64,000 nucleotides of DNA, taken from assembly GCA_964187785.1 (NCBI GenBank), contig OZ076409.1, positions 186,001 through 250,000 on the forward strand, in the 5' to 3' direction. Each line of letters opens with the position of its first letter. Within the stretch, counting starts at the first letter, position 1. Of this stretch, positions 44,248 through 63,556 are shown in pieces. The DNA comes from Amphiscolops sp. MND2022 (lineage: Eukaryota). Below the pieces are notes generated by a model. That model worked only from the letters and a program-made list of their open reading frames with translations, had not been told where the DNA came from and ran no database searches. The position numbers and the translations under genes are program-made.

Positions 44248-46321
44248 TGTAAAGGTTCGATTGGGTTTAGGAGAAATTAGCCTTCTGAGATTCTTGATCA
44301 ATAGTGTTTAGGAGTTAGTTTGCGACTATGCCTTCCTAAACCTTTACAAAAGTTGTCTCTAGGTCTTCCGAGTTCGCAGGAAGGACTTTGTTTCGAGAGA
44401 AGAGTTTGAATATATGAAAAGAATTTGAATTAGTTCGAGTATTATATTCAATAATGTTTGTTTTTACACAATACGCAAGAATACAATACAAACAGAATAA
44501 TGTAATCATCCAAGTTGACACAAATATCCAATCAATAATATCTGAATTGTTTAGCATTCACCACAAATAAATACATCAATTATTTAGGGAGCAATGTTCA
44601 GGTAAGTTGTTTAAATACTATAAAAACTGGAATTTTCTGATCTTATTGTCCAACAATTTGGTTAGGACAAGTGTGCTGACTTTTGGCCAGAATTACAGTC
44701 TATTCAGACCGGTTTGGGGTTCCTAGAGTTCTCAACAATGTAGTGAGAGTTACTAAGTCTATTGACAATTTACGTGACAGGTTTGTCACACGTTCTAGCT
44801 TATAGGAAGCGAAGAACTAGCTTATAGGAAGCTGAGAGTTAAATAAAATAGTTTTAGCCTATATGACCAGCCAATTACTAGGTCGAAGACAGGATTGTCT
44901 TGAGCATAGACTTATAAGAAGTCTTGCGAATCTAAGTAAATTAAGGGTCTTATCTAACCAGCATTCGCTAGGTTTTTGTTCGGACAAGATTGCCGATTGG
45001 GCTCGATCCAGAGGTTCGGTGCCGTGTTCTAAGAGTTTTAACCTATTGCAATGGACCAGCAAGTTTGCTAGGTCGAGAGGAAGACAAGTTTGTCTAAAGA
45101 CTTTGAAGAAGTCTTGTGAGTCTAAGTGAGTTAAAGGCCTTATTTCAACCAGCAGTTTGCTAGGTTGCTTTTTAGACAAGATTGTCAGAATTCTGTTCAA
45201 TACTTTATAAGGTTACATGCATTTTACTTTTTAATCAGTTTGTTTTACTTGCAAGTTAGCTGCAGGTATTGAAATGATCTAGACTAGCAGTCGCTAAGTC
45301 TTGACGCAATCGCGTACTAAGAGGAAAGTGATCTCCGTCGAGAATTGTTTGGGAGCGTTTAGCTCTAGTTAGTTTTCCCTATGATTTTCATAGGAGAACC
45401 TTGTCGGTTGTTTGTCTCTTCAGTCACTAGGACTGGGGGTTGTCTATAAAAGACAGGTAGGAAAAGGGAGCAAAGAAAAAAGAGAAAAATTTTGAGTTGT
45501 GAATTTTGAAGTTATTTTCTAAGTTAAAGAAAATAACTAACCTGAAGTTTGAAGCAAAGATTGGGTCGGAGAGATTTGTTCTCGCAAGAGAGAGATTTTT
45601 TGAGAGAGATGATTTATAGCAGAGGCGAAGAGGAGAGTCAGAGTGAGAGTGTGCAAGAGATTTATGCGAGAAAATTATGAATCAATTTGCTAGAGTCCGG
45701 CTTTTTATACGAGCCGACCGAACGGTACAACCAATCAAATCGATTGTCGTTTTTTTATTGGATACGAAATTATTTCGTCATTATCTCGTCAATATTTTGT
45801 CCATAATTGGAATCGCATTCACTATTGGATGCAACCGAATAGAAGTCGGCGGGGATTGCATCAGCTACCGAATATGTTCGGCTAACCGAGTTGGCTGACG
45901 CAACTCTTTGTATTTGTCAGGGGAATTAATCCTCTCAAGTGGGGGACTTTGTTCCCACTTGAGAATTCTTTTGTTTAAAATTGAGAATTTGGCCGTACAA
46001 GTGGCGCCTATTATTCTCTTTTCAGAGATATTTACTGGCACAAGTGGCGTCGCATATTGTCTTTTCAGGGGAGATAAAAGATAATTGTTTGCACAAGTGG
46101 CAAGCGTTTTCTTTTGTAGAGGGGAATTCTCCCTTTCATATGACGCGCAGCTGTAATTTTGTTTATCTCTAAAATTCTTTTGAGCGTGACTGGAGAATTG
46201 AAAGGGTTTGAGTAAGAGTTCACAAAAATTGAATAAAAAAAATTCTAGCTCCGATTGAATAATTTTCTAAATATGTTTTTTCAAATATTAAAATGAAGAA
46301 AAAGTTGTGTTAAACATAACA
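44248..46321 (-). repeat. Gypsy 3' LTR
   Basis: Direct repeat of 61483-63556 with about 9 substitutions seen by eye; preceded on the minus strand by AAACCCCGGGTGAGT at the PPT position. Confidence 0.97.
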
Positions 46322-46344
46322 ACTCACCCGGGGTTTAAGAATGA

Positions 46345-47097
46345 TTAAGTTGAAAGGGGGGCATACAGGGTATTTATGACTTTTACTTCGAAAAATATGG
46401 AATTGTTTTTTAGCCAGGGGTTCTCTGGGTTCATGAGTTCATCATGTGGGATGAAGCACAAGATGGTGATTGCTGTGTTGCTGGCTGTGGGAATAGGTTT
46501 CTTGAAACACTCACTGTTATTGTTATTCGTCACAATGAGCTGTTTGTAGGGTTTGTAAATATTGCCTTGACCAAGGAGGTGTATCTCGATAACGCCTTGG
46601 AAGGGCCAAGTGAGTATCTCATCGTAGGGTCCCGGACACATAGCCAAGCATACTGACATGTATTTCCCTTTGGCAGTGTCGATGCCATAAGGGTAAGCTC
46701 GTAGATGAAAGGTGTACCCAAAGGGTTGTGAGAAGAAGATAGGGCTACAGACGTCTTTTAGGCTATTAGGATCACAATAGGGTGCTCTTACATGAGACAA
46801 ACTTTTTTCGTATTTTTCAGCATTCTGAAAAATATCAGAAAATTGATCAAGCCTCCAAATAACTTTGTAGAGGTTCCAATCCCGTGGAATTGATTTCTTT
46901 TCGATACGAAGGACTCGCATCTCAAGTGCGTCGAGCTTTTTACTGATCTCGTGTATCATATCAGAATCAAATGTGTCATCTTTATATTGGGTGATATTGA
47001 GTTTTTGTCGAAGCAATAGTAACTCATTGATTAGGGAGTCCGTAAGGGACCTTTCATCTTCCAATTGTTCAATAAGGGTAAATGAGCTTGTGTTCAT
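46345..47097 (-). CDS. TRAF-like protein: coiled coil + MATH/TRAF-C domain, no RING or zinc fingers (250 aa)
   Basis: VIWRL..F, SPIFFSQPFGYTFHLRAYPYG, GKYMSV, GPYDEILTWPF, FKKP, FIPHDEL, NNSIFFEVKV are the canonical TRAF-C motifs; heptad-rich N-terminus. Confidence 0.92.
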   Translation of the reverse strand: MNTSSFTLIEQLEDERSLTDSLINELLLLRQKLNITQYKDDTFDSDMIHEISKKLDALEMRVLRIEKKSIPRDWNLYKVIWRLDQFSDIFQNAEKYEKSLSHVRAPYCDPNSLKDVCSPIFFSQPFGYTFHLRAYPYGIDTAKGKYMSVCLAMCPGPYDEILTWPFQGVIEIHLLGQGNIYKPYKQLIVTNNNNSECFKKPIPTASNTAITILCFIPHDELMNPENPWLKNNSIFFEVKVINTLYAPLST

Positions 47098-47133
47098 CTT
47101 GATAGGTCGTTCTGAAATTCAATGGAAAAGACT

Positions 47134-61440: not shown

Positions 61441-61462
61441 TCTTCTCTTTTGCTTGAATGTG

Positions 61463-61479
61463 CCTCACTGGTCGCACCA
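61463..61479 (-). promoter_or_regulatory. Primer binding site TGGTGCGACCAGTGAGG
   Basis: Starts with TGG 3 nt inside the 5' LTR boundary; primer tRNA not resolved. Confidence 0.85.
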
Positions 61480-61482
61480 GTT

Positions 61483-63556
61483 TGTAAAGGTTCGATTGGG
61501 TTTAGGAGAAATTAGCCTTCTGAGATTCTTGATCAATAGTGTTTAGGAGTTAGTTTGCGACTATGCCTTCCTAAACCTTTACAAAAGTTGTCTCTAGGTC
61601 TTCCGAGTTCGCAGGAAGGACTTTGTTTCGAGAGAAGAGTTTGAATATATGAAAAGAATTTGAATTAGTTCGAGTATTATATTCAATAATGTTTGTTTTT
61701 ACACAATACGCAAGAATACAATACAAACAGAATAATGTAATCATCCAAGTTGACACAAATATCCAATCAATAATATCTGAATTGTTTAGCATTCACCACA
61801 AATAAATACATCAATTATTTAGGGAGCAATGTTCAGGTAAGTTGTTTAAATACTATAAAAACTGGAATTTTCTGATCTTATTGTCCAACAATTTGGTTAG
61901 GACAAGTGTGCTGACTTTTGGCCAGAATTACAGTCTATTCAGACCGGTTTGGGGTTCCTAGAGTTCTCAACAATGTAGTGAGAGTTACTAAGTCTATTGA
62001 CAATTTACGTGACAGGTTTGTCACACGTTCTAGCTTATAGGAAGCGAAGAACTAGCTTATAGGAAGCTGAGAGTTAAATAAAATAGTTTTAGCCTATATG
62101 ACCAGCCAATTACTAGGTCGAAGACAGGATTGTCTTGAGCATAGACTTATAAGAAGTCTTGCGAATCTAAGTAAATTAAGGGTCCTATCTAACCAGCATT
62201 CGCTAGGTTTTTGTTCGGACAAGATTGCCGATTGGGCTCGATCCAGAGGTTCGGTGCCGTGTTCTAAGAGTTTTAACCTATTGCAATGGACCAGCAAGTT
62301 TGCTAGGTCGAGAGGAAGACAAGTTTGTCTAAAGACTTTGAAGAAGTCTTGTGAGTCTAAGTGAGTTAAAGGCCTTATTTCAACCAGCAGTTTGCTAGGT
62401 TGCTTTTTAGACAAGATTGTCAGAATTCTGTTCAATACTTTATAAGGTTACATGCATTTTACTTTTTAATCAGTTTGTTTTACTTGCAAGTTAGCTGCAG
62501 TTATTGAAATGATCTAGACTAGCAGTAGCTAAGTCTTGACGCAATCGCGTACTAAGAGGAAAGTGATCTCCGTCGAGAATTGTTTGGGAGCGTTTAGCTC
62601 TAGTTAGTTTTCCCTATGATTTTCATTGGAGAACCTTGTCGGTTGTTTGTCTCTTCAGTCACTAGGACTGGGGGTTGTCTATAAAAGACAGGTAGGAAAA
62701 GGGAGCAAAGAAAAAAGAGAAAAATTTTGAGTTGTGAATTTTGAAGTTATTTTCTAAGTTAAAGAAAATAACTAACCTGAAGTTTGAAGCAAAGATTGGG
62801 TCGGAGAGATTTGTTCTCGCAAGAGAGAGATTTTTTGAGAGAGATGATTTATAGCAGAGGCGAAGAGGAGAGTCAGAGTGAGAGTGTGCAAGAGATTTAT
62901 GCGAGAAAATTATGAATCAATTTGCTAGAGTCCGGCTTTTTATACGAGCCGACCAAACGGTACAACCAATCAAATCGATTGGCGTTTTTTTATTGGATAC
63001 GAAATTATTTCGTCATTATCTCGTCAATATTTTGTCCATAATTGGAATCGCATTCACTATTGGATGCAACCGAATAGAAGTCGGCGGGGATTGCATCAGC
63101 TACCGAATATGTTCGGCTAACCGAGTTGGCTGACGCAACTCTTTGTATTTGTCAGGGGAATTAATCCTCTCAAGTGGGGGACTTTGTTCCCACTTGAGAA
63201 TTCTTTTGTTTAAAATTGAGAATTTGGCCGTACAAGTGGCGCCTATTATTCTCTTTTCAGAGATATTTACTGGCACAAGTGGCGTCGCATATTGTCTTTT
63301 CAGGGGAGATAAAAGATAATTGTTTGCACAAGTGGCAAGCGTTTTCTTTTGTAGAGGGGAATTCTCCCTTTCATATGACGCGCAGCTGTAATTTTGTTTA
63401 TCTCTAAAATTCTTTTGAGCGTGCCTGGAGAATTGAAAGGATTTGAGTAAGAGTTCACAAAAATTGAATTAAAAAAATTCTAGCTCCGATTGAATAATTT
63501 TCTAAATATGTTTTTTCAAATATTAAAATGAAGAAAAAGTTGTGTTAAACATAACA
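61483..63556 (-). repeat. Gypsy 5' LTR
   Basis: Direct repeat of 44248-46321; followed on the minus strand by the PBS and the gag ATG. Confidence 0.97.
62910..63065 (-). promoter_or_regulatory. LTR core promoter
   Basis: On the minus strand: several CCAAT boxes, TATAAAAA at 62937-62944, and Inr-like TTCAT about 30 nt downstream. Confidence 0.6.

Follow-up and report, generated by a model that had tools for sequence, protein, structure and literature searches.

According to the recent account of metazoan errantiviruses (Chary & Hayashi, eLife 2026, PMC13524379), envelope genes of the gB type are old and occur widely among the Ty3/gypsy elements of metazoans. Planarians harbour the giant Gypsy-like Burro elements (Jurka 2007; Grohme 2018; reviewed in PMC6431247), and in Dugesia tigrina that review places the MATH domain in a separate accessory ORF. 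An Aedes mosquito element of the Pao family carries a captured chuvirus glycoprotein (PMC7642597), and Jingchuvirales glycoprotein EVEs are flanked by Gypsy and Pao fragments; for arthropods, the 2023 paper describing the latter speaks of no clear evidence of glycoprotein capture by Gypsy elements (PMC10084718). Additional proteins are also reported from bdelloid rotifer LTR elements, which carry extra ORFs (PMC5408684), from fish epsilon-like ERVs, which can carry macro-domain ORFs (PMC4977317), and from Caenorhabditis elegans, where the CERV protein of Cer1 is required for genomic RNA export (PMC10309623).

The window, the whole stretch of 64,000 nucleotides from Amphiscolops sp. MND2022 that was analysed, contains a 19.3-kb LTR element on its minus strand (44248-63556; Table 1). 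Its presence, together with a suite of genes, confirms what an earlier sequence-only reading had observed. The explanation that best accounts for the locus, in which we have good confidence, is an endogenous retrovirus of the Ty3/Gypsy class that carries env, exists in many copies and was active recently; the copy in the window is defective in gag. Purifying selection has maintained at least five additional coding units in the lineage: the macrodomain, x3/x4, x5, the TRAF gene and as1.

Table 1. Positions in the window of the parts of the element, listed in element sense.
Feature	Position	Strand	Remarks
Target-site duplication	63557..63560	-	4 bp, TTTT in element sense (AAAA on +); partner 44244-44247
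5' LTR (element sense)	61483..63556	-	2074 bp, TG...CA ends
PBS	61462..61479	-	TGGTGCGACCAGTGAGGC; 3 nt after LTR
gag	60045..61440	-	464 codons in intact siblings; ATG at 61440
-1 frameshift heptamer	60051..60057	-	U_UUA_AAC, at gag end; pol in -1 frame
pol	54469..60075	-	1868 codons, open in window copy
PR	~59680-59952	-	in pol
OARD1/TARG1-like macrodomain	58750..59127	-	embedded in pol, between PR and RT
RT	57703-58077	-	in pol
RNase H	57121-57516	-	in pol
Integrase	55711-56229	-	in pol
as1 exon 2	53427..53681	+	84 codons + TAA
as1 intron (predicted)	53208..53426	+	GTAAGT...TTTGTTTTAG; 219 nt here
as1 exon 1	53025..53207	+	ATG, 61 codons; ends at GTAAGT donor
x3	51700..52110	-	136 aa; x4 paralogue
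51/60/61-nt tandem array	51046..51607	-	10 units here, 6-14 in other copies
x4u (candidate small ORF)	50808..51026	-	72 aa; TAA stop overlaps x4 ATG (TAATG)
x4	50344..50808	-	154 aa; motifs FNCPWTI / PEPHL / LGEL
76-nt tandem repeat	49878..50120	-	two palindromes; 3.2 units here, 2 in most siblings
env	47654..49762	-	702 aa; class III (gB-fold) fusogen, chuvirus/Monjiviricetes type
x5	47134..47643	-	169 aa, after env; conserved start 47625
TRAF-domain-only gene	46345..47097	-	stops 23 nt before 3' LTR
3' LTR	44248..46321	-	2074 bp; 99.6% identical to 5' LTR

The near-identical LTRs, the PBS and the target-site duplication that had been claimed were all located. The LTR pair of the window copy differs by 9 mismatches and no indels, and the 5' LTR has a TATAAAAA box about 690 nt in. 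Shorter internal repeats also occur in the LTR. The TTTT duplication of the window copy is of low complexity; the 4-bp duplication is clearer in the sibling on contig C2, which has TAAG on both sides. The genome contains 329 occurrences of the PBS complement, against 0 in the control. The polypurine tract is poor (GGGTGAG).

The proposed gag/-1 slip/pol arrangement was found. In the window copy gag itself is broken, codon 62 being a premature stop and the frame shifting near codon 110, so that this copy cannot be autonomous. Elsewhere gag is an open frame of 464 codons (8/11 copies); it encodes a CCHC knuckle and gives a weak Retrotrans_gag match. The heptamer T_TTA_AAC is kept in 10/10 siblings and in subfamily B, and the fold downstream of it is no better than shuffles (z -0.26). 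Pol ends in a long Pro/Ser-rich tail. The description as a Ty3/Gypsy-class element with env and the organisation of a complex retrovirus is supported. The RT-RNase H region has its best match in Ty3 (E 3.9e-35); foamy virus (1e-23) and gammaretroviruses (1e-14 to 1e-15) score less well. The element would replicate as an LTR retroelement or virus.

A search of the genome with the LTR returned 40 scored full-length matches among 221 candidates, and at least 15 full-length LTR pairs, in addition to 2 shorter ones. At 98% identity or above there are 35 copies of the TRAF gene, 34 of them open, and 33 copies of as1 exon 2, all open; gag, pol and env are open together in 4/11 copies compared. The family is young and multi-copy. 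Selection was assessed between family A and subfamily B, the latter sampled by two copies only, with 34-95% of synonymous sites changed; pN/pS intervals (in brackets below) are bootstrap 95%, and off-frame controls gave 1.0-3.1. All features are present in 10/10 siblings and 2/2 subfamily-B copies, and the accessory ORFs, for which loss in siblings or neutral evolution had been raised as the adverse outcome, are retained there under purifying selection. The C-terminus of Pol has a pN/pS of 0.12.

The env gene, claimed earlier, is confirmed by its match to Pfam PF24664 (E 1.7e-39), and its pN/pS is 0.04-0.05. The env model reaches E-values down to 3e-29 against chu-, xinmo- and nyami-like glycoproteins and about 1e-10 against herpesvirus gB, which accounts for all 40 matches listed within ranks 1-50. 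Its family comprises 231 homologues, all PF24664 and many multi-copy; this large family and the gB-type class III fold do not bear out the suggestion of an independently acquired fusogen. The Env protein would permit cell-to-cell or germline entry.

The TRAF-like gene and the macrodomain were likewise anticipated correctly. The former matches PF21355 (E 5e-22) and encodes a coiled coil and a MATH domain without RING or zinc fingers; the match to the TRAF domains of TRAF1/2/3/5 (E about 1e-12) includes the coiled coil, and pN/pS is 0.09-0.10 (0.06-0.14). The macrodomain matches human OARD1 (PDB 4j5q, E 3.6e-11) and lies below the Pfam cut-off (17.8 vs 22 bits). Its pN/pS is 0.09 (0.04-0.15) between the subfamilies and 0.53 within family A alone, where 13 sites vary. 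Where OARD1 has the stretch MGAGIA, the aligned loop of the element reads MTTTFA, which makes catalysis uncertain.

Among the small sense ORFs, x3 and x4 are paralogous (E 3e-16) and belong to a family of unnamed small proteins with 22 representative clusters, some of which hold 19-121 members on long genomic contigs. Between A and B, pN/pS is 0.15-0.16 (0.11-0.22) for x3, 0.17 (0.10-0.28) for x4 and 0.23-0.24 (0.16-0.33) for x5; within family A, the signal of x4 and x5 is weak (0.33 and 0.37). The x5 protein has an acidic N-terminus and a basic patch, and its C-terminal domain (about 70 aa) is highly conserved. The candidate x4u is open in 11/11 family-A copies, with a pN/pS of 0.19 against one B copy, and is interrupted in the other. 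Of the orphan ORFs proposed earlier, x3, x4 and x5 stand, whereas 53044-53469 and 52636-53004 are not genes: both are without an ATG, evolve in a neutral-like manner (pN/pS 1.07 and 0.70, respectively) and are frame-broken in subfamily B. One rejected orphan ORF is a shadow of as1. The env, x3, x4, x5 and TRAF genes would be read from subgenomic sense mRNAs, either spliced or internally started. The x3, x4, x5 and as1 products are probably regulatory or host-interaction factors of unspecified kind.

The three repeat sets described as structured, namely the 51/60/61-nt array, the 76-nt array and the LTR repeats, do exist, but their structured nature is weakly supported by the fold z-scores (-0.55 and -1.2 for 51-nt units; -2.8 and -3.7 for 76-nt units). 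The 38-nt core of the first array, AGCACGGTAACGATC..ATCAATCTCTGCCGTGGGTAAA, is nearly invariant between the subfamilies, and this array probably acts in cis as a binding platform, as DNA or as RNA. The palindromes of the 76-nt repeat are absent from subfamily B.

On the opposite strand, as1 appears to be a conserved two-exon gene, its splicing being predicted from conserved signals. An antisense gene had been foreseen, possibly a different one; the six antisense ORFs of at least 100 aa all fail as genes. Exon lengths are fixed, and the donor and acceptor conserved, in the window copy, 9/10 siblings and 2/2 B copies, while the intron is indel-rich (218 nt in two siblings, 156 in subfamily B). 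Owing to its antisense orientation, the intron would survive reverse transcription of the sense genomic RNA. The gene would be read from an internal antisense promoter. Values of pN/pS are 0.14-0.15 (0.08-0.25) for exon 2 and 0.09 for exon 1; pN/pS is spuriously low for an antisense frame whose third positions coincide with those of a sense gene, so these ratios alone do not suffice. A sense coding region, or a conserved non-coding element mimicking coding periodicity, might produce as1 as an artefact: on parts of the two exons, the sense frame sharing its third positions has pN/pS values of 0.28 and 0.22, and as1 has no match in Pfam or PDB. That sense frame, however, has 2 stops in family A, and its ratio is 0.36-0.39 for exon 2 and reaches 0.67 on one segment, whereas the as1 frame is open in the copies with fixed exons, with a conserved ATG, a donor exactly at a codon boundary and indels confined to the intron. 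In 20 diverged copies (65-85% aa identity) all 84 codons of exon 2 are open, 17/20 being exactly 84 long. An artefact is improbable.

The integrity of the element was weighed in the same way. Divergence between A and B is a mosaic, with 93-95% protein identity in the 5' part of pol vs about 70% in x3 and x5, as might be expected if the 3' half, with env and the accessory genes, were a separate element or an assembly chimera. However, a single LTR pair and a single 4-bp duplication enclose the whole element, the order of features is identical in 10/10 siblings on 7 different contigs and in 2/2 B copies, and 15 LTR pairs are uniformly spaced at 17.0-17.8 kb. The common LTR pair, synteny and spacing refute assembly error, and a composite origin is extremely unlikely; the mosaic suggests recombination between lineages, its likely source, which is compatible with the explanation preferred above. 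The extra ORFs might still be useless passengers, chance-transduced from host genes (TRAF, OARD1, small genes): the TRAF and macro parts clearly resemble cellular proteins, the genome has many further MATH-coding loci at 30-35% identity, and ORF capture by LTR elements is known (PMC6431247). Against this, all of them remain in frame under purifying selection despite the synonymous change, while the neighbouring non-genes x1 and x2 drift; on a multi-copy element, moreover, selection works via the element's own spread. The passenger explanation is largely refuted and very improbable. For genes that do serve the element, the macrodomain may, by analogy with RNA-virus macrodomains, remove or bind host ADP-ribose marks, which we propose tentatively; more tentatively still, the RING-less TRAF domain would trimerise and act as a decoy in TRAF-dependent immune signalling. 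We infer host-interaction roles for both. Alternatively, both proteins could serve replication (for example in particle assembly, trafficking or integration targeting, or as a ubiquitin-ligase adaptor in the manner of SPOP-type MATH proteins), since MATH domains are general peptide-binding modules and a macrodomain within Pol would share the packaging or processing of PR, RT and IN. Yet the best solved relatives of the TRAF-like protein are TRAF1/2/3/5, with a trimer-making coiled coil, Pfam reveals no BTB or other ligase-adaptor domain, and the macrodomains of viruses are known above all as antagonists of the ADP-ribosylation driven by PARPs (PMC7232374). A purely replicative role is rather unlikely.

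The earlier interpretation is, overall, partly supported. A literature search did not find the combination of parts, the spliced antisense gene or the orphan families. The complex retroviruses, such as deltaretroviruses (with the spliced antisense gene HBZ), lentiviruses and spumaviruses, offer a functional parallel. The element resembles them in the accessory genes packed downstream of pol and env, including an antisense one with predicted splicing, in its -1 gag-pol frameshift and in its candidate immune antagonists. It is not a member of this group: its RT-RNase H is nearest Ty3, its env is class III rather than class I, and the accessory genes are unrelated.

The individual parts have precedents in the gB-type env of errantiviruses, the MATH/TRAF-C domain of Burro and the macro ORFs of fish ERVs, and the claim that no described element has this combination was overstated, as Burro and the fish ERVs are partial precedents (PMC6431247, PMC4977317). 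As reviewed, Burro is likewise Gypsy-class, with a MATH_TRAF_C domain, env homology to mononegavirus-type fusion glycoproteins and a further enzyme domain that separates PR from RT (PMC6431247). There, however, the motifs lie in a single ORF1 polyprotein (4,873-5,140 aa), in which env follows gag and precedes pol in the same frame, the enzyme is a dUTPase and not a macrodomain, and BIR, BCL2-like and ankyrin motifs occur (PMC6431247), none of which Pfam detects in the present element. Unlike Burro, the latter has separate ORFs 3' of pol and an antisense gene predicted to be spliced. The Aedes element and the Jingchuvirales EVEs share the joining of a Monjiviricetes/chuvirus-type glycoprotein to an LTR retroelement, but the Aedes element is BEL/Pao and not Ty3/Gypsy, and the relevant passages of these papers describe no accessory genes (PMC7642597, PMC10084718). 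Rotifer elements, Cer1 and fish ERVs, as far as their descriptions go, also keep additional proteins, but the genes, their positions and the hosts differ from those of the present element. The macro domain, part of Pol here, forms an extra ORF in the fish ERVs (PMC4977317). The metazoan errantiviruses have in common with the element the LTR-gag-pol-env order, a Ty3-like pol, a gB-fold class III (HSV/gB-type) env, a tRNA PBS and the presence, within one genome, of many copies with over 98% identity (PMC13524379). The words macro, MATH, TRAF and accessory are absent from the main text of that paper, which treats errantiviruses as three ORFs (PMC13524379); the present element has five or six selected coding units beyond these and about 8 kb of additional sequence.

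The 19.3-kb element on the minus strand is a real LTR retroelement, and the anatomy proposed for it in a sequence-only reading (LTRs, 4-bp duplication, primer-binding site, gag–pol slip, env and TRAF gene) is largely right. Its two LTRs, located exactly where that reading placed them, are 2074 bp each, start with TG, end with CA, and differ by nine mismatches and no indels. As all long frames lie on the minus strand, the LTR with the higher coordinates is the 5' LTR. The element is flanked on both sides by TTTT (element sense), a low-complexity sequence that is weak alone, and a sibling on a different contig has TAAG at both flanks; the target duplication is thus 4 bp in both copies with both flanks examined. 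The 18-nt primer-binding site, TGGTGCGACCAGTGAGGC, starts with TGG three bases past the 5' LTR. Its complement occurs 329 times in the genome, against no occurrence of a control pattern, and ARAGORN found no tRNA at any of the three complement loci scanned. The 329 complements far exceed the 33–35 near-identical copies of the family's genes; related element families probably share the same primer. The stretch preceding the 3' LTR, where a polypurine tract is expected, offers only GGGTGAG. In U3, four repeats of a motif containing CACTTG(T/A), spaced 43–53 nt apart, lie upstream of a TATA box and may be transcription-factor sites. In one sibling, the LTR end recurs as an additional 85-bp segment some 20 bp away from each LTR (C4:27038324-27038408 and 27055663-27055747), and the primer-binding site has an additional match as well.

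The assembly searched comprises 1.07 Gb in 1929 contigs. All 40 LTR candidates scored, out of 221, are full-length with 97–100% identity. At least 15 LTR pairs, the window copy among them, are spaced 17.0–17.8 kb apart, and two shorter pairs 12.0 and 7.6 kb. The inner parts of 10 siblings were compared in two separate stretches each, leaving out the 12.0-kb and 7.6-kb deleted copies; all features recur in the same order in 10 of 10, with 95–100% identity. Element copies are 98–99% alike, and gag, pol and env are open together in 4 of 11. The per-base breakage rate is alike in pol and env, and therefore open short ORFs alone prove little. An Rfam scan of the whole window gave no family at gathering score, and eight flank ORFs had no Pfam match. 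The arthropod cuticle family PF00379 is without a match in the genome, but as the controls gave none either, this negative carries little weight.

Where it is intact, gag is a single open frame of 464 codons; the window copy has a stop at codon 62 and a frame change near codon 110. The product contains a CCHC knuckle and matches Retrotrans_gag weakly (E 0.0014, under the Pfam cut-off). The end of gag reads CCT TTA AAC TGC TAA, which places the heptamer U_UUA_AAC in the X_XXY_YYZ register, with pol in the -1 frame. All 10 siblings and a diverged subfamily (B) retain this heptamer, and the fold downstream that might stimulate frameshifting is no better than shuffles (z -0.26). The pol frame, 1868 codons and open in the window copy, encodes in order the Pfam domains Asp_protease, RVT_1, RT_RNaseH, Integrase_H2C2 and rve. 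Its RT–RNase H best matches the Ty3 RT (4ol8, E 3.9e-35), followed by foamy virus (1e-23), caulimovirus (5e-20) and gammaretroviruses (1e-14 to 1e-15). Because Ty3 is the closest in this ranking by best match to the sequences of solved structures, the element is classed by its sequence as Ty3/Gypsy. Two blocks, one in the pol tail and one non-coding, reach 96–98% identity between the subfamilies, against about 80% elsewhere, and neither has coding periodicity; they are candidate cis-acting elements.

Between protease and RT, pol residues 317–442 align with human OARD1/TARG1 over 126 residues (phmmer E 3.6e-11); the Pfam Macro score, 17.8 bits, lies under the 22-bit cut-off. The alignment places KKR opposite KKR and GLD opposite GLD, so that a Lys and an Asp match K84 and D125 (human numbering), which we take to be the catalytic residues of TARG1. 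Both are kept in all 10 family-A copies printed (family A being the window copy and its near-identical siblings), and the OARD1 loop MGAGIA reads MTTTFA in the element. Within family A, the macrodomain has 13 variable sites and a pN/pS of 0.53, with changes too few to judge. Against subfamily B, its pN/pS is 0.09 (0.04–0.15), and that of its neighbours is 0.04 for the protease, 0.10 for the linker and 0.03 for the RT. A word-based search for other long Pol proteins with a macrodomain returned only the family's own Pol (1 of 202 candidates), which is a weak negative.

The env gene has an ORF of its own, about 4.7 kb downstream from the pol stop. Its product of 702 aa has a hydrophobic N-terminus and a C-terminal membrane span, as read from the sequence, and matches PF24664 (E 1.7e-39). 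There are 231 homologues of 386–1229 aa, and PF24664 is present in 120 of 120 among the matches listed; many homologues sit in large clusters, with tens to hundreds of members, on long contigs. The env model, for which 30 homologues were used, has a mean pLDDT of 60, with the beta domains well modelled. A search of the PDB by sequence gave no match; Foldseek gave 98 at E <= 0.001, and all 40 matches listed (from ranks 1–50) are herpesvirus gB at E of about 1e-10. Among predicted viral structures, chu-, xinmo-, nyami- and rhabdo-like glycoproteins match best (E 3e-29 downwards), followed by gB. Because the modelled fold matches gB and chu-like glycoproteins, env is, on its predicted structure, a class III fusogen of the HSV/gB type of PMC13524379.

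Features of the element and the window, with open copies and selection ratios. Positions are window positions. Open copies include the window copy; for pol, one copy not covered in one piece was dropped. Ratios within family A are pairwise Nei–Gojobori sums, in which shared changes are counted repeatedly and post-insertion neutral decay is included. Ratios of A versus B involve only two B copies and are followed by bootstrap 95% intervals in brackets; pS is the share of synonymous sites changed.
Feature	Position	Strand	Open copies	pN/pS within A	pN/pS A vs B	pS A vs B	Detail
Element	44248-63556	-
5' LTR	61483-63556	-
3' LTR	44248-46321	-
U3 motif repeats	63232-63336
gag	start 61440	-	8/11	0.13
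pol	54469-60075	-	5/10	0.12
pol end		-			0.12	0.34
Conserved block	54570-54720
Conserved block	53900-54050
x1	53044-53469	-		1.07
x2	52636-53004	-		0.70
x3	51700-52110	-	11/11	0.12	0.15-0.16 (0.11-0.22)	0.95
x4u	51026-50808	-					72 codons
x4	50344-50808	-	11/11	0.33	0.17 (0.10-0.28)	about 0.47
env	47654-49762	-	8/11	0.22	0.04-0.05	0.63
x5	47134-47643	-	10/11	0.37	0.23-0.24 (0.16-0.33)	0.62
TRAF gene	46345-47097	-	10/11	0.19	0.09-0.10 (0.06-0.14)	0.65
as1 exon 1	ATG at 53025, to GTAAGT at 53208	+			0.09	0.57	61 codons
as1 intron		+					219 nt in window (218 in two siblings, 156 in B); sole indel-bearing part
as1 exon 2	from 53427, TAA at 53679-53681	+			0.14-0.15 (0.08-0.25)	0.77	84 codons, after TTTGTTTTAG
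Satellite	22700-32750						about 10 kb

A search of the genome with the TRAF protein gave at least 152 matches, with 150 of 514 candidates scored. The frame is open in 34 of the 35 matches that are 98–100% identical; another group with open frames stands at 86–88%, and older copies are decayed. Two copies of the 86–88% group represent subfamily B, and both have the order pol end, x1/x2 region, x3, repeat array, x4, env, x5 and TRAF. The accessory ORFs are therefore syntenic in 10 of 10 siblings and in both B copies. Off-frame controls range over 0.5–2.7 within family A and 1.0–3.1 between A and B, and the A versus B ratios of the TRAF gene, x3, x4 and x5 lie at 0.09–0.24. The x1 and x2 ORFs change frame in B, lack a usable ATG and retain protein identities between A and B of only 39% and 55–59%, respectively. 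Given the selection ratios, the frame changes and the missing ATG, x3, x4, x5 and the TRAF gene are, as judged by codon comparison, genes of the element, unlike x1 and x2. The proposal of four orphan ORFs thus stands for x3, x4 and x5, which are under selection, but not for x1 and x2, which drift and are frame-broken in B. A small ORF just before x4, x4u, ends in TAATG, its stop overlapping the x4 start. All 11 family-A copies keep it open. Compared with one of the B copies, its pN/pS is 0.19 over 81 codons, whereas the other B copy has it interrupted; it is a candidate coding ORF.

The divergence between A and B is mosaic over window positions 46222-60075: the 5' part of pol has 93–95% protein identity and synonymous change of 0.27–0.50, against 0.63 in env, 0.95 in x3 and 0.46 in x4. 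Such a pattern points to recombination among lineages. One B copy lacks the env stop, so that env reads through into x5 without a change of frame.

N-terminal RING and TRAF zinc fingers occur in all mammalian TRAFs but TRAF1, and RING-less TRAF forms are dominant negatives. The TRAF gene of the element encodes 250 aa matching PF21355 (E 5e-22) and PF22486 (E 6e-22). Residues 57–239 align with the TRAF domains of TRAF1, 5, 2 and 3 (E about 1e-12), including the coiled coil. Pfam finds MATH models only, and RING and zinc fingers are absent. A second repeated MATH family, about 30% identical to this gene, occupies at least 20 loci (e.g. C3:697086-697595) with a 399-aa frame that always has one internal TGA; frames of 342–344 aa without stops also occur.

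The x3 and x4 genes are paralogous, with 30% identity (E 3e-16). When 1.84 billion proteins were searched with a profile built from five natural sequences, 22 representative clusters came up at E <= 0.001; save one repetitive outlier, these are small proteins with FNCPWTI, PEPHL and LGEL motifs. Two distant clusters, on long contigs, comprise 19 and 121 members. Two family members lie on contigs of 115035 and 343231, the same sizes as contigs with env homologues, a hint that genes of this type are linked to env elsewhere too. The AF2 model of x4 (pLDDT 74.7) has four strands followed by three helices; Foldseek gave no PDB match at E <= 0.001, the best VIA Z is 4.9, below the meaningful level, and the x4 profile found nothing below E 0.44 among PDB sequences. 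The x5 protein has seven homologues, and even where overall identity falls to 38%, its C-terminal domain of about 70 residues hardly varies; the x5 profile found nothing below E 1.2 in the PDB. Pfam gave no match for x3, x4 or x5, and an Atlas search no usable match for x4 and x5.

On the opposite strand, six ORFs of at least 100 aa were rejected as genes because they have stops in subfamily B, in most siblings, or in both; the antisense ORF at 51022-51510 is a by-product of repeat units in multiples of three, and the one at 60954-61334 is present only through the gag frameshift of the window copy. As only ORFs of at least 100 aa entered this first antisense test, the two-exon antisense gene as1 was overlooked. 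A scan for three-base periodicity between A and B gave two coding-like stretches within the x1 region, and both strands were then read. The start, donor, acceptor and both exon lengths of as1 are identical in the window copy, 9 of 10 siblings and both B copies; the acceptor region is lost in one sibling. The low ratios of both exons must be read with the caveat that antisense frames sharing third positions with a real sense gene score low too, as they do throughout env, pol and the TRAF gene. The sense frame matching as1 has two stops in family A and scores 0.36–0.39 over exon 2; its four open pieces include ratios of 0.28 and 0.67 in the exon-2 region and 0.22 in the exon-1 region. Across the genome, exon 2 has 102 matches. 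All 33 at 98–100% identity have an open frame of exactly 84 codons. Twenty full-length matches at 65–85% identity have no internal stop, 17 of them with exactly 84 codons and the others with 91, 96 and 129; seven further matches spanning 83–84 codons have one or two stops each. Exon 2 is opposite in strand to the TRAF gene wherever both are known for the same copy. Neither exon has a Pfam match, and exon 2 has none in the PDB. We take as1, as predicted here, to be a real two-exon antisense gene of 145 codons, of which the x1 sense ORF is a shadow. The antisense orientation of as1 would explain how its intron can persist in an element copied via sense RNA.

Tandem clusters of frames resembling as1 exon 2 (48–63% identity) occur at C5:54208847-54217691 and C1444:537356-543611, about 1.1–1.3 kb and 3 kb apart, some within open frames of 213 aa. 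At C5:54223571-54224301, about 6 kb from such a cluster, are decayed fragments of the TRAF gene. The clusters may represent a source gene family, copies that were domesticated, or an old element that has been rearranged.

The internal array of 51/60/61-nt units has 6–14 units per copy, with a 38-nt core almost unchanged between subfamilies and variable spacers; the genes beside it differ at 39–58% of third positions. The core could form a 7-bp hairpin, which is no better than shuffles (z -0.55 and -1.2), and having no variation it has no covariation. This array is read as a putative cis-acting array of binding sites at the DNA or RNA level. An array of 76-nt units, with 2–3 units, folds better than shuffles (z -2.8 and -3.7); its palindromes are absent from subfamily B, and it is probably dispensable. 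The description of the repeat sets as structured finds weak support. Elsewhere in the window, a satellite of at least 190 units of 51 bp, mostly 95–99% alike, yields pseudo-ORFs of up to 3145 codons on both strands; it has the period of the element's internal array, with only patchy similarity (ATTGATAC, CCCAC).

The accessory suite noticed in the sequence-only reading is thus genuine and richer than described, with selection on x3, x4, x5, the TRAF gene and the macrodomain, and with as1 on the other strand. Viruses of the HIV and HTLV type are "complex" by virtue of accessory genes, which to our knowledge are almost undescribed outside vertebrates. Here, a Gypsy-class element keeps at least five extra coding units, marked by selection beyond open frames. 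Two of these clearly descend from cellular proteins of innate-immune pathways (TRAF signalling and ADP-ribosylation), and one is an intron-bearing antisense gene. A joint reading is possible, if rather doubtful as a whole: an invertebrate lineage derived from Ty3/Gypsy and still active here would have evolved a "complex retrovirus" genome in parallel to vertebrate retroviruses. It would combine a spliced antisense gene guarded by the orientation of its intron, a Pol-embedded ADP-ribose eraser, a RING-less TRAF decoy against innate immunity, and two new small regulatory families with the invariant array as their cis target. The element offers a testable system for the contest between retroelements and host defences in animals relying on innate immunity and piRNAs, for the origin of antisense genes in retroviruses, and for the roles of the x3/x4, x5 and as1 families. 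It also warns annotators that the pol–env interval of such elements can code on either strand.

Retroviridae have an RT and IN of the retroviral clade and a class I env, whereas the best RT match here is Ty3 and the env fold is class III. Ty3/gypsy elements whose env is of F type or gB type have been described across metazoan phyla, frequently as numerous near-identical copies (PMC13524379), and the independent acquisition of env claimed earlier was therefore too strong. The element agrees with "errantivirus" in the sense of that paper in having intact gag, pol and env in multiple near-identical copies; errantiviral ENV is of F type or HSV gB type, and its own env is of gB type. The main text of PMC13524379 does not mention macro, MATH, TRAF or accessory genes, and its supplements could list the family. 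A mosquito Pao element has captured a chuvirus glycoprotein (PMC7642597); for arthropods, a follow-up on these glycoproteins reported no clear evidence that Gypsy elements had captured them (PMC10084718). Epsilon-like ERVs of fish occasionally carry macro-domain ORFs (PMC4977317). For a macrodomain in the Pol of an LTR element, or a TRAF gene in errantivirus-like elements, targeted literature searches yielded only this remark and a review of planarian Burro. Each part of the element thus has a precedent, in metazoan Ty3/gypsy, Burro, Pao/chuvirus or fish ERV cases, and the claim of novelty went too far; those searches turned up neither the parts combined as separate ORFs under selection, nor the spliced antisense gene, nor the x3/x4, x5 and as1 families. 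Burro encodes a polyprotein of about 5000 aa that unites MATH_TRAF_C, BIR, BCL2-like and ankyrin motifs, a dUTPase placed between PR and RT, and a region resembling env and related to the glycoproteins of mononegaviruses; Dugesia tigrina has the MATH domain in a separate upstream ORF (PMC6431247). The element resembles Burro in its MATH_TRAF_C domain, but differs from that giant polyprotein, with env between gag and pol, in having a gag of 464 codons, a pol of 1868 codons and a separate env.
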